From Escherichia coli (lineage in GTDB: Bacteria > Pseudomonadota > Gammaproteobacteria > Enterobacterales > Enterobacteriaceae): a DNA stretch of 64,000 nucleotides. Location of the stretch: NCBI RefSeq assembly GCF_045037415.1, contig NZ_CP173438.1; one strand, 5' to 3'. Every line of letters begins with the position of its first letter. Position 1 is the stretch's first letter. The notes below the pieces were generated by a model. It did no database searches. It was not told the origin of the DNA and was given only the letters and a program-made list of their open reading frames with translations. Position numbers and translations under genes: made by a program. This document shows positions 43,246 through 56,230 of the stretch, piece after piece.

Positions 43246-43938
43246 CTAGTGATAACCACGCGCGGTCATAAAATCCGTAATCGCTTTTTCTGCATCAATC
43301 AGCACCTTTTCCAGTGGCTGATTAGCATCGATATCAACCAGTTGTGCACCGCCAAAGGTTAACTGTGGCGTTATGGCAATCTTCCTCGCCAGCGATTCCC
43401 GTTTATGGTCGGGTTTACGCGCGCAGGCAACTTCAAGGTCAACATTGAGTTTGATGACCAGATCAGGTTTATGGCTCGCCATCCAGTGAAACGCTTTACG
43501 TTCCTGGCTTGCCAGCCATGAGACAAAACGACCACCTTCAATGTTAGGTGGGAACACTGTACCATCGTAAGCGCCAGGAATTTGGTCCTGAGGATAACGG
43601 TCGGTTAGAACAATTAACCCGCGACGACGACAGGCAAGCATATGACGAAAGCGCAGTAAGCGACGGGCGACAAACGCTGTAATTACCAGCGCCGGAACTG
43701 GTCCTGGCAATTTTTTTGCTGTTTTCACCTGATTTCGTTCAATTGTTTTATGTAAGGATTTTCCCATCAACGGTAATTTTGTCACTGAACGACCGACATT
43801 TCCGGCCTGTTTTCCTAAATGAACTCTTTCGGCAGCACCATATTTTTCGACAACGGTAATGAGATGTTCACACACCGTTGACTTGCCTGAACCATCGCTA
43901 CCAATAACGGCAATTAATGGAGGTGTTATTGACTGCAT
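43246..43938 (-). CDS. yghT: P-loop nucleotide/nucleoside-kinase-like protein YghT
   Basis: 230-aa ORF with Walker [10 protein letters not shown], a TDRYPQ motif and a lid-like ARKPDH block; paralogous to the two following genes. Confidence 0.85.
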
Positions 43939-44111: not shown

Positions 44112-44825
44112 GTGAATCAACGTAATATGTCAATAATTAATTCCACGCCAGTGCGTGTTATTGCCATTGTAGGATGTGATGGTTCAGGTAAATCGACCCT
44201 CACGGCAAGCCTGGTAAATGAACTGGCAGCAACAATGCCAACAGAACACATTTATCTCGGGCAATCGTCCGGGCGAATTGGCGAATGGATTTCACAGCTC
44301 CCTGTTATTGGCGCACCTTTTGGGCGTTATCTGCGAAGTAAAGCGGCACATGTGCACGAAAAGCCCTCCACACCGCCTGGCAATATGACTGCGCTGGTTA
44401 TCTATCTGCTTTCCTGCTGGCGGGCGTATAAGTTTCGCAAAATGTTGTGTAAAAGCCAGCAAGGCTATCTGCTCATCACCGACCGCTACCCGCAGGTTGA
44501 AGTGCCGGGTTTTCGCTTTGATGGCCCGCAATTGGCAAAAACCACGGGCGGTAACGGTTGGATAAAAATGTTAAGGCAGCGCGAGCTGAAGCTGTACCAA
44601 TGGATGGCATCTTATTTGCCCGTATTGTTGATTCGTCTTGGCATTGATGAACAAACCGCGTTTGCGCGTAAACCTGACCACCAACTGGCGGCGTTACAGG
44701 AAAAAATCGCCGTTACGCCGCAACTGACATTTAATGGCGCCAGGATCCTTGAACTGGATGGTCGGCAACCAGCCGATGAAATTCTGCAAGCGTCACTACG
44801 CGCAATTCAAGCTGCGCTTTCCTGA
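44112..44825 (+). CDS. yghS: P-loop kinase-like protein YghS
   Basis: 237-aa ORF starting at GTG (44112); Walker A GCDGSGKST, TDRYPQ, ARKPDH. Confidence 0.85.
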   Translation: MNQRNMSIINSTPVRVIAIVGCDGSGKSTLTASLVNELAATMPTEHIYLGQSSGRIGEWISQLPVIGAPFGRYLRSKAAHVHEKPSTPPGNMTALVIYLLSCWRAYKFRKMLCKSQQGYLLITDRYPQVEVPGFRFDGPQLAKTTGGNGWIKMLRQRELKLYQWMASYLPVLLIRLGIDEQTAFARKPDHQLAALQEKIAVTPQLTFNGARILELDGRQPADEILQASLRAIQAALS

Positions 44826-44856: not shown

Positions 44857-45630
44857 ATGGACGCACTACAAACACAAACTGTTAATAGTACAACCGCGCC
44901 GCAGCCCAACTACATTCCGGGGCTGATTGCGGTGGTCGGGTGTGATGGCACCGGTAAATCCACACTGACCACCGACCTCGTGAAATCGCTGCAACAACAC
45001 TGGCAAACCGAGCGGCGCTATCTGGGGCTGCTCTCGGGCGAAGACGGCGACAAAATCAAACGATTGCCGTTGGTTGGCGTCTGGCTCGAAAGGCGACTGG
45101 CGGCCAAATCATCGAAAACCCAAAGCATGAAAACCCAAAGCATGAAAACCAAATCTCCAGCGCTATGGGCGGCGGTGATTATGTACTGCTTCTCGCTGCG
45201 AAGAATGGCGAATCTACGCAAGGTTCAGCGACTGGCGCAAAGTGGCGTTCTGGTGGTCAGCGATCGCTTCCCGCAGGCTGAAATTTCGGGCTTTTATTAT
45301 GACGGACCGGGGATCGGCGTCGAACGTGCGACCGGGAAAATCAGCATGTTTCTGGCGCAGCGCGAACGGCGTTTATACCAAAAAATGGCGCAATACCGTC
45401 CTGAATTAATCATTCGTTTGGGGATTGATATTGATACTGCCATCTCCCGCAAGCCTGACCATGACTATGCCGAGCTGCAGGACAAAATCGGCGTCATGTC
45501 GACGATTGGCTATAACGGCACAAAAATTCTTGAGATTGATTCCAGAGCGCCCTACAGCGAAGTGCTGGAACAGGCACAGAAGGCGGTTTCTCTGGTTGCC
45601 ATCGTTTCTGACCGCCGAAGTTTAACTTAA
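44857..45630 (+). CDS. yghR: P-loop kinase-like protein YghR (carries an internal 5-aa tandem repeat)
   Basis: 257-aa ORF MDALQTQTVNSTTAPQPNYIPGLIAVVGCDGTGKST...; SDRFPQ and SRKPDH motifs. Confidence 0.85.
   Translation: MDALQTQTVNSTTAPQPNYIPGLIAVVGCDGTGKSTLTTDLVKSLQQHWQTERRYLGLLSGEDGDKIKRLPLVGVWLERRLAAKSSKTQSMKTQSMKTKSPALWAAVIMYCFSLRRMANLRKVQRLAQSGVLVVSDRFPQAEISGFYYDGPGIGVERATGKISMFLAQRERRLYQKMAQYRPELIIRLGIDIDTAISRKPDHDYAELQDKIGVMSTIGYNGTKILEIDSRAPYSEVLEQAQKAVSLVAIVSDRRSLT
45115..45150 (+). repeat. In-frame 15-bp tandem duplication inside yghR
   Basis: AAAACCCAAAGCATG occurs twice in tandem, followed by a partial third copy (AAAACC), encoding ...KTQSMKTQSMKTKS... Confidence 0.9.
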
Positions 45631-45675: not shown

Positions 45676-47025
45676 TTGGCGGGTTTTAACATCAAACATT
45701 GGTTTGCAGATGGCGCGTTTCGCACCATTATTCGCAATAGCGCCTGGTTAGGCTCCAGTAATGTCGTGAGCGCTTTACTGGGTCTGTTGGCGCTCTCGTG
45801 TGCCGGTAAAGGGATGACGCCCGCCATGTTTGGCGTACTGGTGATTGTACAATCGTACGCCAAGTCGATCAGCGATTTTATTAAGTTTCAGATATGGCAG
45901 CTGGTGGTTCAGTACGGAACACCAGCATTAACCAACAATAATCCGCAGCAATTCCGCAATGTCGTCTCATTTTCCTTCTCGCTGGATATCGTCAGCGGCG
46001 CGGTGGCGATTGTCGGCGGCATTGCCTTACTCCCTTTTCTTTCCCATTCATTAGGTCTGGATGACCAAAGCTTTTGGCTGGCAGCGCTGTATTGCACGCT
46101 CATTCCTTCAATGGCTTCCTCCACGCCGACCGGCATTCTGCGTGCGGTAGATCGCTTCGATCTAATTGCTGTACAGCAAGCGACGAAACCTTTTCTGCGC
46201 GCAGCGGGGAGCGTCGTAGCCTGGTATTTTGACTTTGGTTTTGCGGGTTTTGTTATTGCCTGGTACGTGTCGAATCTGGTTGGCGGCACCATGTACTGGT
46301 GGTTTGCCGCGCGCGAATTACGCCGCAGAAATATCCATAACGCCTTCAAATTGAATCTGTTTGAGTCTGCCCGACACATTAAAGGCGCGTGGAGTTTTGT
46401 CTGGTCAACCAACATTGCCCACTCCATCTGGTCGGCGCGTAACTCGTGCAGCACAGTGCTGGTGGGGATCGTGTTAGGACCCGCTGCCGCCGGGTTATTT
46501 AAAATCGCCATGACATTCTTCGACGCCGCCGGAACGCCAGCGGGTTTACTGGGCAAAAGTTTTTACCCAGAGGTGATGCGTTTAGATCCGCGCACCACCA
46601 GACCGTGGTTGTTAGGCGTGAAGTCAGGTTTACTGGCGGGCGGAATTGGTATTCTGGTGGCGCTCGCGGTGTTGATCGTCGGCAAGCCGCTTATTTCGCT
46701 GGTGTTTGGCGTTAAGTATCTCGAAGCGTATGACCTGATTCAGGTGATGCTGGGCGCAATTGTGATTTCGATGCTGGGCTTCCCACAGGAGTCATTGCTA
46801 TTGATGGCGGGAAAACAGCGCGCTTTTCTCGTGGCGCAAACCATCGCCTCAATCGGCTACATCGTATTGCTGTTCATGTTCTGTCATCTGTTTGGCGTGC
46901 TGGGAGCAGCGTTTGCTTATTTCGGTGGGCAATGTCTGGATGTGGTGCTCTCGTTAATTCCGACCTTAAAGGCATTTTTTCAGCGCCATTCCTTGCTTTA
47001 TAACGCAGCCGGAGAGAAATCCTGA
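45676..47025 (+). CDS. yghQ: MOP-superfamily (Wzx-like) polytopic membrane protein YghQ; start uncertain
   Basis: 449-aa track ORF beginning at TTG 45676 with AAGG 9 nt upstream; highly hydrophobic multi-TM protein. Stop overlaps the start of the next gene (TGATG). Confidence 0.75.
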   Translation: MAGFNIKHWFADGAFRTIIRNSAWLGSSNVVSALLGLLALSCAGKGMTPAMFGVLVIVQSYAKSISDFIKFQIWQLVVQYGTPALTNNNPQQFRNVVSFSFSLDIVSGAVAIVGGIALLPFLSHSLGLDDQSFWLAALYCTLIPSMASSTPTGILRAVDRFDLIAVQQATKPFLRAAGSVVAWYFDFGFAGFVIAWYVSNLVGGTMYWWFAARELRRRNIHNAFKLNLFESARHIKGAWSFVWSTNIAHSIWSARNSCSTVLVGIVLGPAAAGLFKIAMTFFDAAGTPAGLLGKSFYPEVMRLDPRTTRPWLLGVKSGLLAGGIGILVALAVLIVGKPLISLVFGVKYLEAYDLIQVMLGAIVISMLGFPQESLLLMAGKQRAFLVAQTIASIGYIVLLFMFCHLFGVLGAAFAYFGGQCLDVVLSLIPTLKAFFQRHSLLYNAAGEKS

Positions 47026-47849
47026 TGATGAGAAAATATTTCCCGCTTGAGGCGAGCGAGCGTTTATTTGTTGCAGTTGAAGAAGATGATGTCGTTGATG
47101 CACAGGTCAGTTTGCCGCCGACTATCGCACTAAGTTGTACCACCGAAATCATCCATGATAATTACGCGTTATGCCTGCAATTCTGGCTCAATGGCGTCAA
47201 TCGCCAGGAGTTACTGCGTTTAATATGCAAACAGGCCAAAGGCGATGAGCTGACTGCTGATGAGCGCAAACAATTTAAATACATGCGAGCGCGCTACAAG
47301 CACCTGCGTTTTGCGCAACGGCTGTATTTAAAGAAGCATCAGGCCGGATTTTTATTCGGCAAAACGACCGTTTTTTTGGGGCGTTTTCAGGACGGTTTTC
47401 GTAACGGTAAGAAAAATATTGTGTCGTATTACGGCAACTTGTTACGGGTTTATTTAAGCTCTCCGGTCTGGTCGTTGGTGAACTATTCATTACGCCATAG
47501 CCAGTTAGAAAGCGTAAGCGGTTTTATTGCCTATCGGCAAAAGCAAATGCATACCCTGAAAGAGATAATTGCCAAACCGCGACTCACCGGCAGGGAATTT
47601 CATGATGTGCGAAAAATCATCAGCCAGCAGGTTTCTTATTACGACACCTTAAGATCGCTTGATCCTGAAAATAAAGAGGCGTTACAGATTTCCCGCTTCC
47701 TCGCCGCCATTAATGGCCTGATGGGGGATAAACACGACGACATGGTGGCGGATGATATGGAAAACCGCCAGTCGTATGATGCACCGGTGGCGCTGGATAG
47801 CGATATTCGCCAGCGCTTAGAGCTGCTGATTTCGCGTTTTCCGCTATAA
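47025..47849 (+). CDS. Hypothetical soluble protein, no recognisable family
   Basis: 274-aa ORF MMRKYFPLEASERLFVAVEEDD...; coding assignment rests on length, coupling to yghQ (1-nt overlap) and operon context. Confidence 0.6.
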   Translation: MMRKYFPLEASERLFVAVEEDDVVDAQVSLPPTIALSCTTEIIHDNYALCLQFWLNGVNRQELLRLICKQAKGDELTADERKQFKYMRARYKHLRFAQRLYLKKHQAGFLFGKTTVFLGRFQDGFRNGKKNIVSYYGNLLRVYLSSPVWSLVNYSLRHSQLESVSGFIAYRQKQMHTLKEIIAKPRLTGREFHDVRKIISQQVSYYDTLRSLDPENKEALQISRFLAAINGLMGDKHDDMVADDMENRQSYDAPVALDSDIRQRLELLISRFPL

Positions 47850-47857
47850 CCGGAGCA

Positions 47858-48421
47858 ATGATGTCATCTCGTTTGATTATTGCGCTGATTATCATGCTCT
47901 TAGCCCAGGGTGTGCAGGCACACAATTTTGTCACTGGCAAAACGGTTACCCCCGTTTATATCCAGGAAGGCGGCGAGCTGCTTCTGAATAGCGACGACGA
48001 AATTCACTACCAAAAGTGGAACAGCACACAGCTGGCGGGAAAAGTCCGCATTATCCAGTATATCGCCGGGCGTAAGTCGGCGAAGAAAAAGAACTCACTG
48101 TTAATTAAAGCGGTTGAAGCGGCAAACTTTCCGCAGGATCGTTTTCAGCCCACCACCATTGTGAACACCGATGATGCCATCTTTGGTACTGGCTATTTTG
48201 TCGTTGGCAAAATCGAAAAAAATAAACGCCGCTATCCGTGGGCGCAATTCGTTATTGACGGCAATGGACTGGGACGCGTTGCCTGGCGGTTGCCGGAGCA
48301 GAGTTCAACCATTCTGGTGCTGAATAAAGACGGGCAAATTCAGTGGGCAAAGGACGGCAGCCTGACGCCGGAAGAGGTAGATCATGTCATTGCGCTGGCG
48401 CAGAAACTGATCAATGAATAA
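47858..48421 (+). CDS. YtfJ-family periplasmic protein
   Basis: 187-aa ORF with signal peptide MMSSRLIIALIIMLLAQGVQA and GGAG Shine-Dalgarno; body resembles my recollection of YtfJ (QKWNS..LAGKVR..QYIAGR, TTIVNTDDAI, LNKDG..QWAKDG.LTPEEV). Confidence 0.65.
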   Translation: MMSSRLIIALIIMLLAQGVQAHNFVTGKTVTPVYIQEGGELLLNSDDEIHYQKWNSTQLAGKVRIIQYIAGRKSAKKKNSLLIKAVEAANFPQDRFQPTTIVNTDDAIFGTGYFVVGKIEKNKRRYPWAQFVIDGNGLGRVAWRLPEQSSTILVLNKDGQIQWAKDGSLTPEEVDHVIALAQKLINE

Positions 48422-48451: not shown

Positions 48452-49522
48452 ATGAAGCTGGTTGAACACTACATCATGCGTGGTACGCGCCGTCTGGTGC
48501 TGATTATCGTCGGTTTTCTGATCTTTATTTTCGCCAGCTACTCCGCACAGCGTTATCTGACCGAAGCGGCAAATGGGACCTTAGCTCTTGATGTTGTGCT
48601 GGATATCGTTTTCTACAAAGTGCTGATTGCACTGGAGATGTTGTTACCTGTTGGTCTGTATGTGTCAGTTGGCGTGACGCTAGGGCAGATGTATACCGAC
48701 TCGGAAATTACCGCTATCTCTGCGGCGGGGGGCAATCCGGGACGCTTGTACAAAGCCGTTCTTTATCTGGCGATACCGCTAAGTATTTTTGTCACCCTTC
48801 TGTCGATGTATGGTCGGCCGTGGGCTTATGCGCAGATTTATCAACTGGAGCAACAGTCGCAGTCGGAGCTGGATGTTCGCCAGTTGCGGGCAAAGAAATT
48901 TAACACTAACGATAACGGACGAATGATCCTTTCGCAGACGGTTGATCAGGATAATAATCGCCTGACTGACGCGCTGATTTATACTTCTACTGCCAATCGA
49001 ACCCGCATTTTCCGCGCCCGTTCGGTTGATGTGGTTGACCCATCACCTGAGAAACCGACCGTTATGTTGCATAACGGGACCGCCTATCTTCTCGATCATC
49101 AGGGGCGTGACGACAACGAACAGATCTACCGTAATCTGCAATTACATCTGAATCCGCTGGATCAAAGCCCTAACGTCAAACGCAAAGCAAAATCGGTCAC
49201 GGAGCTGGCGCGCTCAGCCTTTCCTGCCGATCATGCCGAACTGCAATGGCGACAAAGCCGTGGCCTGACAGCATTGTTGATGGCGCTGCTGGCCATTTCA
49301 TTAAGTCGGGTAAAACCGCGGCAAGGGCGATTTTCAACGTTATTGCCACTGACATTGCTGTTTGTTGCCATTTTTTATGGCGGCGACGTCTGCCGTACGC
49401 TGGTGGCTAACGGTGCGATTCCCCTCATTCCTGGTTTGTGGTTAGTACCCGGACTCATGCTAATGGGCCTGCTGATGCTGGTCGCACGCGACTTCTCTTT
49501 GCTGCAGAAATTTTCCCGATGA
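48452..49522 (+). CDS. LptF/LptG-family (YjgP/YjgQ) permease paralog
   Basis: 356-aa ORF: three N-terminal TM segments, a central soluble domain and C-terminal TM segments, the architecture of LPS-export permeases. Confidence 0.75.
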   Translation: MKLVEHYIMRGTRRLVLIIVGFLIFIFASYSAQRYLTEAANGTLALDVVLDIVFYKVLIALEMLLPVGLYVSVGVTLGQMYTDSEITAISAAGGNPGRLYKAVLYLAIPLSIFVTLLSMYGRPWAYAQIYQLEQQSQSELDVRQLRAKKFNTNDNGRMILSQTVDQDNNRLTDALIYTSTANRTRIFRARSVDVVDPSPEKPTVMLHNGTAYLLDHQGRDDNEQIYRNLQLHLNPLDQSPNVKRKAKSVTELARSAFPADHAELQWRQSRGLTALLMALLAISLSRVKPRQGRFSTLLPLTLLFVAIFYGGDVCRTLVANGAIPLIPGLWLVPGLMLMGLLMLVARDFSLLQKFSR

Positions 49523-50598
49523 ATGTTTTCAGTCGCTATTTAATCCGTCATCTCTTTCTCGGTTTTGCCGCCGCCGCAGGGCTATTGCTGCCGCTTTTTA
49601 CCACCTTCAACCTGATTAACGAACTGGATGATGTCAGCCCGGGCGGTTATCGCTGGACTCAGGCGGTGCTGGTGGTGCTGATGACCTTACCGCGTACACT
49701 GGTCGAACTTTCGCCGTTTATCGCATTATTGGGAGGGATTGTTGGCCTGGGGCAGTTATCGAAAAACAGTGAGCTTACCGCCATTCGCAGCACTGGGTTT
49801 TCTATCTTCCGTATTGCACTGGTGGCGCTGGTTGCCGGGATATTGTGGACTGTTTCGTTAGGCGCGATAGATGAGTGGGTGGCGTCGCCATTGCAGCAAC
49901 AGGCGCTGCAAATCAAATCGACTGCCACCGCGTTGGGGGAGGACGATGACATTACCGGCAATATGCTTTGGGCCAGGCGCGGTAATGAATTTGTGACGGT
50001 GAAATCGCTGAACGAGCAGGGCCAGCCTGTGGGCGTGGAGATATTTCATTATCGCGACGATCTCTCGCTCGAATCCTACATTTTTGCACGCAGTGCCTCC
50101 ATTGAAGACGACAAAACGTGGATCCTGCATGGTGTGAATCATAAAAAATGGTTGAATGGCAAAGAAACGCTGGAAACATCAGATAATCTTGCCTGGCAAT
50201 CGGCCTTCACCAGTATGGATCTTGAAGAGTTATCGATGCCGGGGAATACTTTTTCTGTCCGTCAGCTTAATCATTACATCCATTATTTGCAGGAAACCGG
50301 ACAACCCAGCAGCGAATACCGCCTTGCACTGTGGGAAAAACTGGGGCAACCGATCCTGACCCTGGCGATGATTTTGCTGGCTGTGCCGTTCACCTTTAGC
50401 GCCCCGCGCTCGCCAGGGATGGGTAGCCGTCTCGCTGTAGGCGTCATCGTTGGCTTACTCACCTGGATCAGCTATCAAATCATGGTCAATCTGGGATTGT
50501 TATTTGCGTTGAGCGCACCTGTTACCGCGCTCGGTTTACCGGTAGCGTTTGTGTTGGTGGCGTTGAGCCTGGTGTATTGGTATGACAGACAACATTAA
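49519..50598 (+). CDS. LptF/LptG-family (YjgP/YjgQ) permease paralog, LptG-like
   Basis: Track ORF 49438..50598; preferred start ATG at 49519 (MNVFSRYLIRHLFLGFAAAAGLLLPLFTTFNLINELDDV...) overlapping the upstream stop (ATGA). The N-terminus and LSKNSELTAIRSTGFS block parallel E. coli LptG. Confidence 0.78.
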   Translation: MNVFSRYLIRHLFLGFAAAAGLLLPLFTTFNLINELDDVSPGGYRWTQAVLVVLMTLPRTLVELSPFIALLGGIVGLGQLSKNSELTAIRSTGFSIFRIALVALVAGILWTVSLGAIDEWVASPLQQQALQIKSTATALGEDDDITGNMLWARRGNEFVTVKSLNEQGQPVGVEIFHYRDDLSLESYIFARSASIEDDKTWILHGVNHKKWLNGKETLETSDNLAWQSAFTSMDLEELSMPGNTFSVRQLNHYIHYLQETGQPSSEYRLALWEKLGQPILTLAMILLAVPFTFSAPRSPGMGSRLAVGVIVGLLTWISYQIMVNLGLLFALSAPVTALGLPVAFVLVALSLVYWYDRQH

Positions 50599-50632
50599 AC
50601 CCGCCGTGGCGCAACACCACAGCGGGCTCACA
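50599..50632. terminator. Stem-loop between the convergent LptG-like gene and the AOS-like gene
   Basis: CCCGCCGTGG-CGCAACA-CCACAGCGGG, imperfect 10-bp inverted repeat filling the 34-bp gap between two convergent stop codons. Confidence 0.45.
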
Positions 50633-51805
50633 TTACTGCTTCAGAGTAGCAAATGCCTGAATGATGGCATCGATTTGCTCACGACTGTGGGCAGCGTTTA
50701 CGCTACAGCGCAGCAGAGTGATGCCTGCAGGCGCGGCAGGTGGCAGGATAAGATTCACATAAACGCCCAGCGAAATAAGCTCGCGCCAGATGCGTAAACC
50801 TTCCTCTTTCGAACCGATTATTACTGGCACTACCGGGCTAATATGTGAACTTAACTCATAACCCAGTTTTTGCAGACCGTCATACAGATGGTTGGCGTTA
50901 TCCATCAGTTTTTGCCGCAGCTCTGGTTGTGTGGCAATGGTTCTTAACGACGAGCGCACGGTCGCAATGCAGGACGGAGAAGGAGAGGCGGTAAAAATAT
51001 ACGGGCGGCTGCCGTAGCGCAGCACTTCCATCGCTTCCGAACCGACAGCAAAACCGCCAATCGAGGCCAGACTTTTACTGAAAGTACCAACGATAATATC
51101 CACATCATCTTCAACGCCAACGGCTTCAGCCAGTCCGCGCCCCGTTGCGCCTAACACGCCAAACGAATGCGCTTCATCGACAATCAAATAACCACCGAGA
51201 CGACGTTTGATATCAACAATTTCCGCTAACGGCGCAACGTCACCGAGCATGCTGTAGATGCCCTCAACGATGATAATCGCCTCTTTCGCCCGTTCACCGA
51301 GGCGAACCATGCGCCGTTCCAGATCTTTAGCATCGTTATGGCGGAAACGAATAATTTCTGCGCCACCGAGAGAACAGGCGTCATAAATACTGGCGTGGCT
51401 GTCGGCATCCAGTAACACCACGGCGTTATGGTCGGCAAGTGCGCTGATGACGCCTAAATTAGCGGTATAACCGGTTGAAAAAACGATAGCGGTAGGGCGA
51501 TTGAAAAACTCGGCAATCTCTTTCTCTAACGCCAGGTGCGGCGCATAACTGCCGTTTGCCATACGAGAACCGGTGGTGCCGGTGCCTTGGGCCGCTAACG
51601 CTGCCTGACCTTCGGCGATGGCATCATGATTAAAGGTTAAACCGAGATAATTATTGGTCCCGGCCAGAATCACTTTTTTATTGCCGATCCGACCTTCGGT
51701 GGCGGAATACACTTCATCAATACAGGTGCCAAACGGTGTTAACCCGTTGTCACTAAATTGCAGTCGCTCGCCAGCAAGGCGCGCATATTTATCGTATAGC
51801 CCCAT
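50633..51805 (-). CDS. PLP-dependent alpha-oxoamine synthase (serine palmitoyltransferase / BioF / Kbl family)
   Basis: 390-aa ORF with VDEAHSFG and the PLP-lysine block GTFSKS; start ATG overlaps the ACP stop (TAATG). Confidence 0.85.
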   Translation of the reverse strand: MGLYDKYARLAGERLQFSDNGLTPFGTCIDEVYSATEGRIGNKKVILAGTNNYLGLTFNHDAIAEGQAALAAQGTGTTGSRMANGSYAPHLALEKEIAEFFNRPTAIVFSTGYTANLGVISALADHNAVVLLDADSHASIYDACSLGGAEIIRFRHNDAKDLERRMVRLGERAKEAIIIVEGIYSMLGDVAPLAEIVDIKRRLGGYLIVDEAHSFGVLGATGRGLAEAVGVEDDVDIIVGTFSKSLASIGGFAVGSEAMEVLRYGSRPYIFTASPSPSCIATVRSSLRTIATQPELRQKLMDNANHLYDGLQKLGYELSSHISPVVPVIIGSKEEGLRIWRELISLGVYVNLILPPAAPAGITLLRCSVNAAHSREQIDAIIQAFATLKQ

Positions 51806-52053
51806 TATTTATTCTCCAGCCATGGAAGTAGAGTTTCCATTAATTGCGCAGGGGTTTTGACATCCAGCAGAATATTAATAGGAATGGAAATATCGAATCT
51901 GTCTTCCAGCATCATTAAGAGATCCATCACTTTGATCGACTCCAGGCCAAGATCGTTGACGAGATCGCTGTCGGGCTTAATTTCCACACCGTTTTCGACC
52001 AAATCCTGTAAACAGGAAAGGATGTAATCCATTACTATTTCACGATTTACCAT
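51805..52053 (-). CDS. Acyl carrier protein
   Basis: 82-aa acidic protein with a phosphopantetheine-attachment-like DLGLESI motif. Confidence 0.75.
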   Translation of the reverse strand: MVNREIVMDYILSCLQDLVENGVEIKPDSDLVNDLGLESIKVMDLLMMLEDRFDISIPINILLDVKTPAQLMETLLPWLENK

Positions 52054-52084: not shown

Positions 52085-52999
52085 TCAAAATAGCCCGTTG
52101 CGTAATGCGTGTTCCAGGCTAATCCCGGGAAACCAATTAATATCTTCAGAAATACGGTTATTACTTGCCGACCAGTCGGCATGGGTTAATTCACGGATTT
52201 TCGAACGAGTCAGCATCGGTTCTTTACCCGCCAGACGGCTCAACGCGGTACTGATATCCGCAAGGCAGGTGAGTAGCGGCAGAGGAATACCGACCATCCG
52301 CACGGAACCACAGCGGACATCGGCAACAAGCTGTTGGACACGTTGCCAGTCATAGCCTCCGGCGACGCCATCGCATAATTCATAGGTTTGCGTCTGTACA
52401 GTTTCGGCGCTTAACCACTGACCCACTGCTTGCGCAAAATCGGTGACGTGCAGGAAAGAGAGCTGTGTCTCTGGCGTGCCAAGTCGTGGCAGCAGACCGC
52501 GCAGCATCCAGTCAAACAGCGGTTTTAACTCTTTATCGCCGGGACCATACACGGCTGTCGGGCGAAAAACGCCCAACGTAATTGCGTCAGCCATTGCAGT
52601 CAGCTGTTGTTCGGCGACGTGTTTGGAATTTGCGTACCAGGAGAGTTCGGGATGGCGCGCCGCCAGCGAAGAGATAAACAGAAATCGTTGGCAAAAGCCG
52701 CTCTCTTTTGCCGCTTGCATCAGGCGCAGGCTGCCGTCAACGTTGCAGCGGGTAAAAATCTCTTCTTTGTGCCCGCGCACTTGCCCGGCGCAATGGACCA
52801 CCGCGCTGGCTCCGGTAACCAGTTCGCTAAGCGAATGTGTATCTTCCAGCGAACCGCGCACCCAAGTGAGATTATCATTGACGTGAGCGCGGGCAGTACG
52901 CGTCAATGCGCGAACGTGAAAGCCGCGGGCGAGCAGGTTATCAATAATATATTTACCGATAAACCCGGTAGCGCCCGTCACCGCGACAGTTTGATTCAT
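52085..52999 (-). CDS. NAD(P)-dependent epimerase/dehydratase-family (extended SDR) reductase
   Basis: 304-aa ORF with Rossmann VTGATGFIG and catalytic YxxxK (YANSK); start ATG overlaps the upstream stop (ATGA). Confidence 0.82.
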   Translation of the reverse strand: MNQTVAVTGATGFIGKYIIDNLLARGFHVRALTRTARAHVNDNLTWVRGSLEDTHSLSELVTGASAVVHCAGQVRGHKEEIFTRCNVDGSLRLMQAAKESGFCQRFLFISSLAARHPELSWYANSKHVAEQQLTAMADAITLGVFRPTAVYGPGDKELKPLFDWMLRGLLPRLGTPETQLSFLHVTDFAQAVGQWLSAETVQTQTYELCDGVAGGYDWQRVQQLVADVRCGSVRMVGIPLPLLTCLADISTALSRLAGKEPMLTRSKIRELTHADWSASNNRISEDINWFPGISLEHALRNGLF

Positions 53000-54744
53000 G
53001 CCAGGGACTCCTGCACATGAAGACTGGCAGCATAAGCCTTCTGATAACGTTTTTTCGCTTCCGCACGGGCAGGCTTGCCGGAGGATGTTCGGGGAATACT
53101 GTGGGGCGGCAACAGATCGATATCCGCGGTAACGCCAAATTCGCTTTGGATCCGTGCTGCCAGCGCGTGGATAAGCTGCCCGCGACGTTCTTCATCGCTG
53201 ATCCGACACTGGATCTGCAAAATGATTTTTTCCTGGGCGGTAACAAAAGCAATCGCATCGCCAGAATGAATTTCCGGTTCCTGTTCCGCAATATATTCAA
53301 TATCCTGCGGCCAGATATTACGGCCACGAATAATAATCAGATCTTTAATGCGTCCGGTGACATACAGATAACCGTCCAGCAGATAACCGAGGTCGCCGGT
53401 GTCTAACCAGCCCGTCGCGGCAATCTCGTCTTGTGAAATCTGGTCGCCAAAGTAACCGCTCATCAGGCTAGGGCCGGAGATGCAAATATGGCCTACCACA
53501 CGTTCCGCGACAGGTATACCTGCTTCATTGCGGATTTCAATGCCATGTTCCGGCAACGCTTTACCGCAGTTGACGAAAGTCGATACGGCGCGTGTTTCAG
53601 CACCCGGCGCGACGGCTTTACCCTGGTATTCGAGGATGTCGCGATCCACTTCGTTAACCACAACCCCGGAAGCTTCATCAGAGAAGCTGACAGCCAGCGC
53701 ATTTTCTGCCAGTCCGTAGCACGGCATGAAAGTTTTATCGTCAAAGTTGACCTGACGGAAACATTCAGCGAATTGATGGAGTTGTTCTGCGGAGATGGGT
53801 TCTGCACCAATACCAGCGACGCGCCAGCAGGAAAGATCCAGTTCAGCGAGATCTTTTTCATTCACGCGGCGCTGGCACAATTCATAGCCAAACGGCGGCG
53901 CAACGGAAACGGTGCCGCGATTTTTACTGATCAATTTAAGCCATTGCAGAGGACGCATGGCAAAATCCTGAGTGCGCAAATAATCTACTGAAAGCTGCGT
54001 GGCGACGGGGGTCAGGAGAAAGCCGACCAGTCCCATATCATGGTAGAAAGGCAGCCAGGAGACGCAGCGGTCGCCAGGGCGTAATTTAATCCCATCGTGG
54101 CTTATAGCACGTAGATTAGCCATCACTTCGCGGTGAGTAATGATAACGCCACGGGGAAAACGGGTGCTGCCGGAGGTGTACTGGAGGTAGGCGATATCGT
54201 TTGGAACTGGACGTTGAAGCGCAACATCGGCTTCCGGTAATGCCTTAAACCAGGCGTGGCTTAAAACATGTAATTCGGGATTGTTATGCGTCGCGGCATT
54301 GACCAGTGGCAACCACTCATCACCAGTGATAATGGCTGCGGGCTGGCAACTTGCCAGTAACCCCTGCAGTTTGGCGCTCCAGGAATCCCGCTGACCGACG
54401 CCCATTGGAATCGCCAACGGGACGGCGACTAAGCCGGCATACTGGCAGGCAAAAAAAGCCTCTACAAACCCGCTACTCGTTTCGGCAATCAGTGCCACGC
54501 GATCGCCTTTTTTCAGGTTCAGCGATAACAACCGCTTCGCACCAGCTTCGGCACGCGCTTTTAACGTCTGATATTCCAGTTGATCTTCAAGTTGGCAACG
54601 TCTGTCATAAAAATTCATTCCAGCGCTACTCAGAGCGGCATAGTCCAAAGCATCAACCAGCGTTGGAAAATCGGCATAGCGCATAGGTAGGGAATGCGTA
54701 AAGATTTTATTAGACATATACACCACGAAAAAATTGGATATCAA
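52996..54744 (-). CDS. Fatty acyl-AMP ligase / acyl-ACP synthetase (AMP-dependent synthetase family); start uncertain
   Basis: Track ORF starts at TTG 54744; an in-frame ATG at 54717 (MSNKIF...) is the alternative. AMP-binding core YTSGSTRFPRGV and a C-terminal ...SGKPAR... block. Confidence 0.82.
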   Translation of the reverse strand: MISNFFVVYMSNKIFTHSLPMRYADFPTLVDALDYAALSSAGMNFYDRRCQLEDQLEYQTLKARAEAGAKRLLSLNLKKGDRVALIAETSSGFVEAFFACQYAGLVAVPLAIPMGVGQRDSWSAKLQGLLASCQPAAIITGDEWLPLVNAATHNNPELHVLSHAWFKALPEADVALQRPVPNDIAYLQYTSGSTRFPRGVIITHREVMANLRAISHDGIKLRPGDRCVSWLPFYHDMGLVGFLLTPVATQLSVDYLRTQDFAMRPLQWLKLISKNRGTVSVAPPFGYELCQRRVNEKDLAELDLSCWRVAGIGAEPISAEQLHQFAECFRQVNFDDKTFMPCYGLAENALAVSFSDEASGVVVNEVDRDILEYQGKAVAPGAETRAVSTFVNCGKALPEHGIEIRNEAGIPVAERVVGHICISGPSLMSGYFGDQISQDEIAATGWLDTGDLGYLLDGYLYVTGRIKDLIIIRGRNIWPQDIEYIAEQEPEIHSGDAIAFVTAQEKIILQIQCRISDEERRGQLIHALAARIQSEFGVTADIDLLPPHSIPRTSSGKPARAEAKKRYQKAYAASLHVQESLA

Positions 54745-55087: not shown

Positions 55088-56230
55088 ATGGAATGCGATC
55101 TGCTGATGATTAAAATTGAAAAAGTAATTAATAAAAATGACCTTAAGGCATTTATCGCTTTTCCGTCATCACTTTATCCCGACGATCCAAACTGGATACC
55201 CCCTTTATTCATTGAACGCAACGAGCATTTGTCTGCGAAAAATCCGGGGACGGACCATATCATCTGGCAGGCGTGGGTGGCAAAAAAAGCGGGGCAGATA
55301 GTTGGGCGTATTACCGCGCAAATAGATACCTTGCACCGCGAGCGTTACGGCAAAGATACCGGTCATTTCGGCATGATTGACGCCATTGATGATCCGCAGG
55401 TTTTTGCCGCGTTGTTTGGCGCAGCGGAAGCGTGGTTGAAGTCACAAGGTGCAAGTAAGATCAGCGGTCCTTTCAGCCTGAATATCAATCAGGAAAGCGG
55501 ATTACTGATTGAAGGTTTCGATACACCACCCTGTGCGATGATGCCGCACGGTAAACCGTGGTATGCCGCGCATATTGAACAATTGGGTTATCACAAAGGC
55601 ATTGATTTACTGGCGTGGTGGATGCAGCGAACCGATCTCACTTTCTCTCCGGCGCTAAAAAAACTGATGGATCAGGTGCGTAAGAAGGTGACCATTCGCT
55701 GCATCAATCGCCAGCGGTTTGCCGAAGAGATGCAGATCCTGCGTGAGATTTTCAATTCTGGCTGGCAGCACAACTGGGGATTTGTGCCGTTTACCGAACA
55801 TGAATTCGCGACCATGGGCGACCAACTTAAATATCTGGTGCCGGACGATATGATCTACATCGCTGAGATTGATTCTGCACCCTGCGCGTTTATTGTCGGC
55901 TTGCCAAACATCAACGAGGCGATTGCCGATCTGAACGGATCGCTCTTTCCCTTCGGCTGGGCAAAATTGCTGTGGCGTTTAAAAGTCAGCGGTGTGCGAA
56001 CTGCGCGAGTACCGCTGATGGGCGTGCGGGACGAGTATCAGTTCAGCCGCATCGGCCCGGTGATTGCGTTGTTATTGATTGAAGCCTTACGCGATCCGTT
56101 TGCCCGCCGGAAGATCGATGCGCTGGAGATGTCATGGATCCTCGAAACCAATACAGGCATGAATAACATGCTGGAACGCATTGGGGCGGAGCCGTACAAG
56201 CGTTACCGATTGTATGAAAAGCAGATTTGA
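55088..56230 (+). CDS. yghO: GNAT-like acyltransferase-family protein YghO, apparently intact
   Basis: 380-aa continuous ORF MECDLLMIKIEKVINKNDLKAF... (alternative start ATG at 55106). I recall K-12 yghO being annotated as a pseudogene. Confidence 0.7.
   Translation: MECDLLMIKIEKVINKNDLKAFIAFPSSLYPDDPNWIPPLFIERNEHLSAKNPGTDHIIWQAWVAKKAGQIVGRITAQIDTLHRERYGKDTGHFGMIDAIDDPQVFAALFGAAEAWLKSQGASKISGPFSLNINQESGLLIEGFDTPPCAMMPHGKPWYAAHIEQLGYHKGIDLLAWWMQRTDLTFSPALKKLMDQVRKKVTIRCINRQRFAEEMQILREIFNSGWQHNWGFVPFTEHEFATMGDQLKYLVPDDMIYIAEIDSAPCAFIVGLPNINEAIADLNGSLFPFGWAKLLWRLKVSGVRTARVPLMGVRDEYQFSRIGPVIALLLIEALRDPFARRKIDALEMSWILETNTGMNNMLERIGAEPYKRYRLYEKQI

Follow-up and report, generated by a model that had tools for sequence, protein, structure and literature searches.

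Caulobacter crescentus carries the closest described counterpart of the system treated here. Its sphingolipid locus contains paralogues of LptF and LptG, named LptF2 and LptG2 (CCNA_01214/CCNA_01213, equivalent to CC_1156/CC_1155; Olea-Ozuna 2024, PMC11324152; bioRxiv 10.64898/2026.04.12.717747), for which a transport role was first proposed by Olea-Ozuna et al. 2024 (PMC11324152). The gene set for dihydroceramide in this organism comprises Spt, AcpR, AasR, CerR and bCerS (PMC11324152). Uchendu, Isom and Klein (bioRxiv 10.64898/2026.04.12.717747) reported that lptF2, lptG2 and lptC2 can be deleted only if spt or cpgB is absent, i.e. if the anionic sphingolipid is not made, and that the permeases F2 and G2 are found in one complex and each co-purifies with the only LptB of the organism. 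The same preprint states that lptF2/G2 are present in many alpha- and gammaproteobacterial sphingolipid loci and draws, in its Fig. 2B, the locus of Escherichia coli UTI89 beside those of Caulobacter and Sphingomonas. Here, we describe the pair lptF2 and lptG2 in a 64-kb stretch of an E. coli chromosome (contig NZ_CP173438.1; this whole stretch is called the window in the following). The idea and the locus in E. coli have thus been published before, so that this work adds confirmation and data on distribution rather than a discovery; the genes are also annotated in RefSeq.

The other point of reference is the canonical LptB2FG(C) complex for the export of lipopolysaccharide (LPS), for which structures are available (PDB 6MHU, 6MIT, 6MJP, 5X5Y, 6S8H). 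Its permeases share the family PF03739 and the fold with the products of lptF2G2, in their operon, too, F precedes G and its stop codon overlaps the start codon of G, and the glutamate of the coupling helix is common to both. In contrast, the canonical genes lie at pepA-lptF-lptG, as seen in K-12, and are universal (5425 of 5426 complete E. coli genomes), whereas lptF2G2 lie in a cluster around a gene for serine palmitoyltransferase (Spt) and are dispensable and strain-variable. An annotation made from the sequence alone (the first-pass annotation) had seen in them a second pair in addition to the essential lptFG elsewhere in the genome and had proposed a pairwise alignment with LptF and LptG. 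The first point is correct, and the alignment with E. coli's own proteins gave ~29% identity for LptF2 with LptF and ~28% for LptG2 with LptG, as for paralogues. With identities this low, lptF2G2 must be an ancient paralogue.

We consider it likely, with a probability of about 0.65, that LptF2 and LptG2 are the transmembrane half of a type-VI (LptFG-fold) ATP-binding cassette (ABC) lipid extractor that belongs to the sphingolipid cluster and is probably powered by LptB.

Identity, fold and conservation of LptF2 and LptG2

lptF2 (48452..49522, + strand) codes for an LptF-type permease of 356 amino acids and lptG2 (49519..50598, + strand) for an LptG-type permease of 359 amino acids, counted from the ATG; RefSeq names them lptF and lptG. 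The first-pass annotation had pointed to an ATGA overlap of two adjacent genes, to an LptF/LptG architecture of both products and to an LptG-like N terminus of the second, and it was right in all of this. The ATGA at 49519-49522 is common to the stop of lptF2 and the start of lptG2. Read directly from the sequence, the N terminus of LptG2 is MNVFSRYLIRHLF, and the protein matches the LptG model TIGR04408 from end to end (model positions 2-350 of 351) with 306 bits at a cut-off of 240. LptF2 matches the LptF model TIGR04407 at positions 2-346 of 347 with 316 bits (cut-off 230). Since the scores on the respective other model are much smaller (64 bits for LptF2 on the LptG model, 87 bits for LptG2 on the LptF model), the assignment to F and G is clear. 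PF03739 is precomputed for the protein clusters of both. Phmmer searches against the PDB sequences retrieved only LptF chains with LptF2 (E 5e-32 to 3e-20) and only LptG chains with LptG2 (E 7e-42 to 2e-35), and the matches extend over the full length.

Structure prediction had been named as a further check, and the AlphaFold2 (AF2) models, which are single chains only, are compatible with the LptFG fold. The model of LptF2 (pLDDT 82) has LptF chains as top Foldseek matches, the best being 9dok_F with a TM-score of 0.83, and the model of LptG2 (pLDDT 90.4, pTM 0.83) has LptG chains with TM-scores of 0.85-0.88, the best being 6mit_G with 0.88. In both predicted structures a block of six β-strands at residues ~150-230 is placed between the third and the fourth of six transmembrane helices. 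In LptF2, the periplasmic β-jellyroll covers residues ~150-232 of the model, and the coupling helix, at ~85-91, includes Glu85.

Glu85 is also the coupling-helix glutamate of LptG2. The equivalent residues are E84 in LptF and E88 in LptG, which we take to be the ones that dock on the nucleotide-binding domain (NBD) and contact LptB. The glutamate is present in 139 of 140 aligned sequences of the LptG family. When LptF2 is compared with LptG2, the coupling-helix segment is by far the best-conserved window, with 9 of 15 residues identical versus 18.6% overall. Between LptF2 and LptF it shares first place (again 9/15), and between LptG2 and LptG the best window is situated just upstream of it (residues 66-80). 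A conserved coupling segment is what would be expected if LptF2 and LptG2 bind to equivalent grooves on the two halves of a homodimeric NBD.

Both genes are intact and under purifying selection. Of the 5426 complete E. coli genomes, 4105 have the pair (2147 nt, at least 80% coverage), E. coli B and LF82 among them, and the matches are ungapped down to 95.6% identity. Six E. coli alleles, up to 4.4% divergent, all have 2147 nt and neither internal stops nor indels, and the ratio of nonsynonymous to synonymous substitution rates (dN/dS) is 0.059 for lptF2 and 0.066 for lptG2; the frameshifts that the first-pass annotation had considered as a sign of a remnant are thus not seen in these alleles. 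The G+C content of the locus equals the genome average, which argues against a recent island.

Between the window and two other strains, synonymous divergence is 0.27-0.29 in lptG2 and only 0.04-0.05 in the adjacent lptF2. This suggests that recombination had a breakpoint near the junction of the two genes and that a divergent allele of lptG2 circulates in E. coli.

The surrounding sphingolipid locus and its relatives

The gene order in the window is gss, pitB, yghT/S/R/Q, the locus, yghO, glcC and glcD. The first-pass annotation had placed the pair among genes for lipid synthesis, and this is supported by the scores of Spt and of the ligase and by gene linkage; what it did not recognise is the type of lipid, since the locus is a bacterial sphingolipid (Spt) cluster. 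Downstream of lptG2, and convergent with it, four genes form an operon on the - strand. They code for Spt (spt, 50633..51805; 598 bits on NF047599, cut-off 500; also named spt in RefSeq), a dedicated acyl carrier protein (ACP; 51805..52053; sub-threshold NCBIfam ACP matches and so annotated in RefSeq), a reductase of the NAD-dependent epimerase/dehydratase family (52085..52999; NCBIfam SDR matches and RefSeq), which is the positional counterpart of Caulobacter CerR, and a fatty acyl-AMP ligase (FAAL; 52996..54684; 874 bits on NF006624, cut-off 600), the counterpart of the Caulobacter acyl-ACP synthetase. The start of the ligase gene is that of RefSeq; the longest open reading frame extends to 54744. 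The 34-nt gap between the convergent stops of lptG2 and spt is filled by a GC-rich hairpin with a 16-bp stem (50596..50630), found in a terminator scan, which is probably a shared bidirectional terminator.

The operon is followed by yghO (55088..56230, + strand). Its product has no match in Pfam or NCBIfam and is a probable N-acyltransferase, the counterpart of bCerS. This assignment is based on its linkage to the cluster in other species (see below) and on the orthology listing of its homologues: the YghO homologues of Azotobacter vinelandii and Pseudomonas luteola are listed as orthologues of Caulobacter bCerS with 45-47% identity (Olea-Ozuna 2024, PMC11324152). The copy of yghO on a Klebsiella plasmid is annotated as N-acetyltransferase. 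In EcoCyc-style annotation of K-12, YghO appears as a putative DNA-binding regulator, and this annotation is probably wrong.

Upstream, yghS, yghR, yghQ, a gene for a 274-aa protein, a ytfJ-like gene, lptF2 and lptG2 apparently form a single operon. The gene directly upstream of lptF2 (47858..48421, + strand) codes for a YtfJ-family protein (216 bits on TIGR01626, cut-off 151) with an apparent N-terminal signal peptide, as judged from reading the translation; it has no relative in the PDB by sequence. It is preceded by the gene for the 274-aa protein (47025..47849, + strand), which is of unknown family and matches neither Pfam nor NCBIfam, and by yghQ (45676..47025, + strand), whose product is a MOP/Wzx-type flippase-like membrane protein according to a weak MOP flippase match. 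Pfam and PDB sequence searches gave no explanatory match for the 274-aa protein, YghO, the YtfJ-like protein and YghS. Further upstream, yghT (43246..43938, - strand), yghS (44112..44825, + strand) and yghR (44857..45630, + strand) code for paralogous P-loop kinase-like proteins with weak dTMP-kinase/AAA matches. Within yghR, a 15-bp tandem repeat (45104-45150, 3.1 copies) encodes a repeated KTQSM motif. K-12 YghR has 252 amino acids and the protein encoded here 257, which fits a difference of one repeat unit.

Homologues of LptG2 and LptF2 are present across Enterobacterales at 64-76% identity. A scan of species-representative genomes gave 78 loci with LptG2, in which neighbours were counted within 10 kb. 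Their hosts are gamma- and betaproteobacteria, the only taxa that the scan returned: Escherichia, Hafnia, Serratia, Erwinia, Pantoea, Citrobacter and Rosenbergiella among the enterobacteria, as well as many Pseudomonas, Azotobacter, Stutzerimonas, Nitrococcus, Methyloversatilis, Nitrosomonas and Nitrosospira. LptF2 adjoins LptG2 in 77 of the 78 loci, and the biosynthetic core is close by in most of them: SDR in 66, ACP in 64, Spt in 62, FAAL in 61 and YghO in 56; many loci without these neighbours are short contigs. PepA, LptC and LptA were found within 10 kb in none of the 78, so that lptF2G2 never adjoins pepA. Neither the window nor the related loci yielded a candidate when searched for genes like LptC2 or LptA.

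The accessory genes divide these loci into two types. yghT/S/R, yghQ (37 of 78 species), the 274-aa gene (43 of 78) and the ytfJ-like gene (44 of 78) accompany the core in ~35-44 species, which are essentially enterobacterial. Clusters of the Pseudomonas type instead contain genes for an MsbA-like ABC protein, a diacylglycerol (DAG)-kinase-like kinase, a CDP-alcohol phosphatidyltransferase and a metallophosphoesterase. Clusters of Pseudomonas, Azotobacter and betaproteobacteria (e.g. on plasmid pPNP1 and at A. vinelandii Avin_44240-44370) have LptG2 proteins with 44-58% identity to that of E. coli, the same Spt-ACP-SDR-FAAL-YghO core and the same adjacent F2-G2 pair without LptB. They differ in having a DAG-kinase-like ceramide kinase and the MsbA-like fused ABC protein, whereas the enterobacterial clusters have YghQ, YghR/S/T, the 274-aa protein and the YtfJ-like protein. 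These different gene sets suggest that the enterobacterial cluster differs from the Pseudomonas type in head group and flippase. At 50% clustering, the next relatives have 51%, 45% and 44% identity (the last is from Methyloversatilis), then at most 37%. The 45% and 37% relatives come from metagenomic contigs and are part of a similar cluster there: the LptF/LptG pair is adjacent, and its surroundings include nucleotidyltransferases, a DAG-kinase-like gene, a metallophosphoesterase and a CDP-alcohol phosphatidyltransferase, to which the contig of the 45% relative adds Spt-ACP-SDR-AMP ligase.

Both types of cluster also occur on plasmids. The whole enterobacterial block of 13 genes is present on the conjugative IncFIB/MOBH plasmid NZ_CP106839.1 of Klebsiella michiganensis, and a Pseudomonas-type cluster with lptF2G2 on the IncP-type plasmid pPNP1 of Pseudomonas sp. 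JS425. On pPNP1, the cluster is flanked by a class 1 integron integrase on one side and by an integrase with a toxin-antitoxin pair on the other, and an IS5-family transposase is found inside it. Since complete clusters are plasmid-borne, the capacity for synthesis and export of the lipid is horizontally mobile. The module thus passes from host to host with no NBD on board, which fits a reliance on a conserved ATPase of the host.

Compared with Caulobacter, E. coli likewise has a second pair of the LptF/LptG fold in addition to canonical lptFG, and in both the pair is part of a locus for Spt, ACP, reductase, acyl ligase and N-acyltransferase in which there is no copy of LptB. However, Caulobacter has LptC2, which E. 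coli lacks, and the accessory genes are CpgA-C for the head group and the flippase candidate CC_1166 in the former and YghR/S/T, YghQ, the 274-aa protein and the YtfJ-like protein in the latter. Because the accessory genes differ, the lipid product of E. coli is probably different from that of Caulobacter.

Energy source, mechanism and competing explanations

The locus has no nucleotide-binding subunit of its own. Tblastn with E. coli LptB, LptC and LptA gave no match at E ≤ 1 anywhere in the window, and no true LptB lies beside the pair in the 78 species, in line with the first-pass annotation, which had noted the lack of an adjacent LptB-like ATPase. LptB-like matches do occur in 23 of the 78 loci, all with at most 35% identity. 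One type of these are the fused MsbA-like transporters of 573-682 amino acids near the Spt cluster (Pseudomonas and betaproteobacterial types), and the remaining ones are unrelated ABC genes at a distance of 5-9 kb. A DNA-level search found one full-length copy of lptB per genome. The absence of a nucleotide-binding subunit from the locus makes the housekeeping LptB the likely source of energy. The first-pass annotation had suggested that the pair is a dedicated extractor for a lipid other than LPS and may borrow an ATPase in trans. It did not recognise that this idea was already in print: it had been put forward in 2024 (PMC11324152), and it is the conclusion that Uchendu, Isom and Klein drew for Caulobacter (bioRxiv 10.64898/2026.04.12.717747). 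The suggestion is supported here as far as computation goes, by the LptF/LptG architecture, the ancient paralogy, the missing LptB-like gene and the linkage to Spt clusters, and for E. coli its functional part is an inference by analogy.

By analogy to Caulobacter, which serves as the model for a sphingolipid as substrate, for the direction in which it is transported and for LptB as the ATPase, the following sequence of events can be envisaged. Spt, the ACP, the acyl-AMP ligase, the reductase and the acyltransferase YghO would produce a ceramide-type lipid at the inner membrane, and a flippase (presumably YghQ in enterobacteria) would bring it to the periplasmic leaflet. The heterodimer of LptF2 and LptG2 would take the lipid into its membrane cavity and then move it up the periplasmic β-jellyrolls towards the outer membrane. 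The energy would most likely come from a dimer of the housekeeping LptB, which LptFG would also use and which would bind to the conserved coupling helices of the heterodimer.

It could be argued that another protein energises the pair, either YghR/S/T or a different ABC nucleotide-binding protein, and the arrangement of the genes gives some reason for this: yghT/S/R are only 3-5 kb upstream of the pair, yghS and yghR belong to the same operon with yghT divergent from it, and all three travel with the block on the conjugative plasmid. In addition, the Pseudomonas-type loci have an ABC protein beside spt. However, profile searches detected no ABC_tran domain in YghT, YghS or YghR, the similarity of these proteins to kinases and AAA proteins is weak, and they do not co-vary with lptF2G2. 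They accompany the cluster in ~35 of the 78 species but are missing from most of the loci of the Pseudomonas type and of Azotobacter, Nitrococcus and Methyloversatilis that keep lptF2G2, with 31-39% matches in a few Pseudomonas loci. YghR/S/T as the missing ATPase was therefore rejected; being absent from most non-enterobacterial loci that keep lptF2G2, they follow the biosynthetic gene set rather than the transporter. The ABC protein of Pseudomonas is a permease-ATPase fusion of the MsbA type and more likely a flippase. Moreover, the coupling-helix glutamate is conserved, and LptB of Caulobacter co-purifies with both permeases (bioRxiv 10.64898/2026.04.12.717747). Altogether, we regard another ATPase as improbable.

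The RefSeq names imply a further possibility, that lptF2G2 is a redundant or condition-specific second exporter for LPS or modified LPS. Both proteins pass the cut-offs of the NCBI 'equivalog' models for LptF and LptG, and some of the cationic residues that bind the phosphates of lipid A or the inner core, i.e. LptG K34, K40, K41, K62, R133 and R136 and LptF R33 and K317 (Tang 2019, PMC6744409), have counterparts: LptF2 keeps R34 and R315 for LptF R33 and K317, and LptG2 keeps R59 and K133 for LptG K62 and R136, four positions that contact lipid A phosphates in the Shigella structure (PMC6744409). At the positions of LptG K34, K40, K41 and R133, of which K34 is the site of a lethal exchange in LptG (K34E; PMC6744409), LptG2 has N31, D37, D38 and L130. 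This would speak weakly against LPS, but the pattern is common in LptG-family proteins of other taxa. A 'charge switch' at the LPS contacts as predictor of the substrate was rejected, because a non-lysine or acidic pattern is found in most of the 140 LptG-family sequences and in LptG of P. aeruginosa; with the N/D/D/L-type pattern so common in the family, these residues are silent on the substrate. What makes a second LPS exporter unlikely is the setting: the pair is rarely seen outside an Spt cluster and never together with pepA, lptC or lptA, its identity to the housekeeping pair of the same cell is only 28-29%, and K-12 does without it, as do the other genomes, ~24% in all, that have lost it, whereas canonical lptFG is universal.

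The losses themselves raise the question whether the locus is what remains of a lipid island gained by horizontal transfer, silent or in decay and now without a function in E. coli. In K-12 MG1655, only an IS5 element (insH9) separates the truncated yghQ from yghO: lptF2, lptG2 and spt are gone, as are the 274-aa gene, the ytfJ-like gene and the genes for ACP, reductase and ligase. In E. coli B (C2566) and LF82, by comparison, lptF2, lptG2 and spt are retained. There are many products that are truncated or fused, including LptF2 forms of 243 and 238 amino acids, PitB::LptF2 and GspC::LptG2, and the literature searched contains neither a phenotype nor an E. coli sphingolipid. In public assemblies of E. 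coli and Shigella, the fusions comprise GspC::LptG2, YtfJ-like::LptF2 (553 amino acids), LptF2 with a PitB domain and AMP-ligase::LptF2. Such fusions and fragments suggest repeated deletion and decay of the locus in some lineages. A remnant without function is nevertheless unlikely in view of a dN/dS of ~0.06 for both genes, intact alleles despite their divergence, an average G+C content and a synteny that is conserved across many enterobacterial genera. Since the pair is missing from ~24% of the genomes and truncations and fusions are common, it is dispensable; the locus as a whole is dispensable but maintained.

Some observations weigh against our preferred reading of lptF2G2 as the LptB-powered extractor of the sphingolipid cluster. 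The pair is absent or partial in ~1300 of the 5426 complete genomes, K-12 included, and truncated or fused forms are common, e.g. the 243-aa LptF2 with 471 member sequences and the 238-aa form in Shigella boydii. Caulobacter LptF2/G2 have their listed orthologues in the pairs of A. vinelandii and P. luteola (48-49% identity to E. coli LptG2), at an identity of only 24-25% (PMC11324152). Even E. coli LptG2 and canonical LptG are no further apart than this (28%). For the biosynthetic enzymes, these tables of Caulobacter orthologues give 38-57% (PMC11324152). With values of only 24-25%, the transfer of function from Caulobacter rests on gene position and not on sequence orthology. In a neighbour-joining tree, LptG2 from sphingolipid loci forms a monophyletic clade with weak bootstrap values of 28/100 for the exact clade and 49/100 if up to two extra sequences are allowed, and the nearest nameable relatives of E. 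coli LptG2 outside such clusters are LptG proteins of other Gammaproteobacteria, e.g. Arhodomonas and Salinisphaera. A residue pattern that points to a non-LPS substrate was sought in the alignments and not found. The literature search retrieved no experiment on the E. coli lptF2G2 proteins, no report of a sphingolipid in E. coli and nothing relevant on the function of yghO or yghQ.

It is tempting to speculate, although we hold this only tentatively, that the gamma- and betaproteobacterial LptF2G2 lineage was recruited to sphingolipid clusters independently of Caulobacter, and that it exports an undescribed sphingolipid of E. coli, strains of the B/BL21 type included, whose head group and route depend on YghR/S/T, YghQ and the YtfJ-like protein and whose export competes with LPS for LptB.

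A possible second lipid-export route in E. coli

If this proposal for the extractor holds, lipids reach the outer membrane of most wild E. coli strains by a second export route as well, which shares the essential LptB with the export of LPS. This would bear on the composition of the outer membrane, on the sensitivity to polymyxin and detergents and on drugs directed against LptB2FG. The loss of the locus from K-12 may explain why it has remained largely unstudied in the model organism. With the genetics of E. coli it could be addressed how two permease pairs share one LptB and whether LptC, LptA and LptDE carry sphingolipids.

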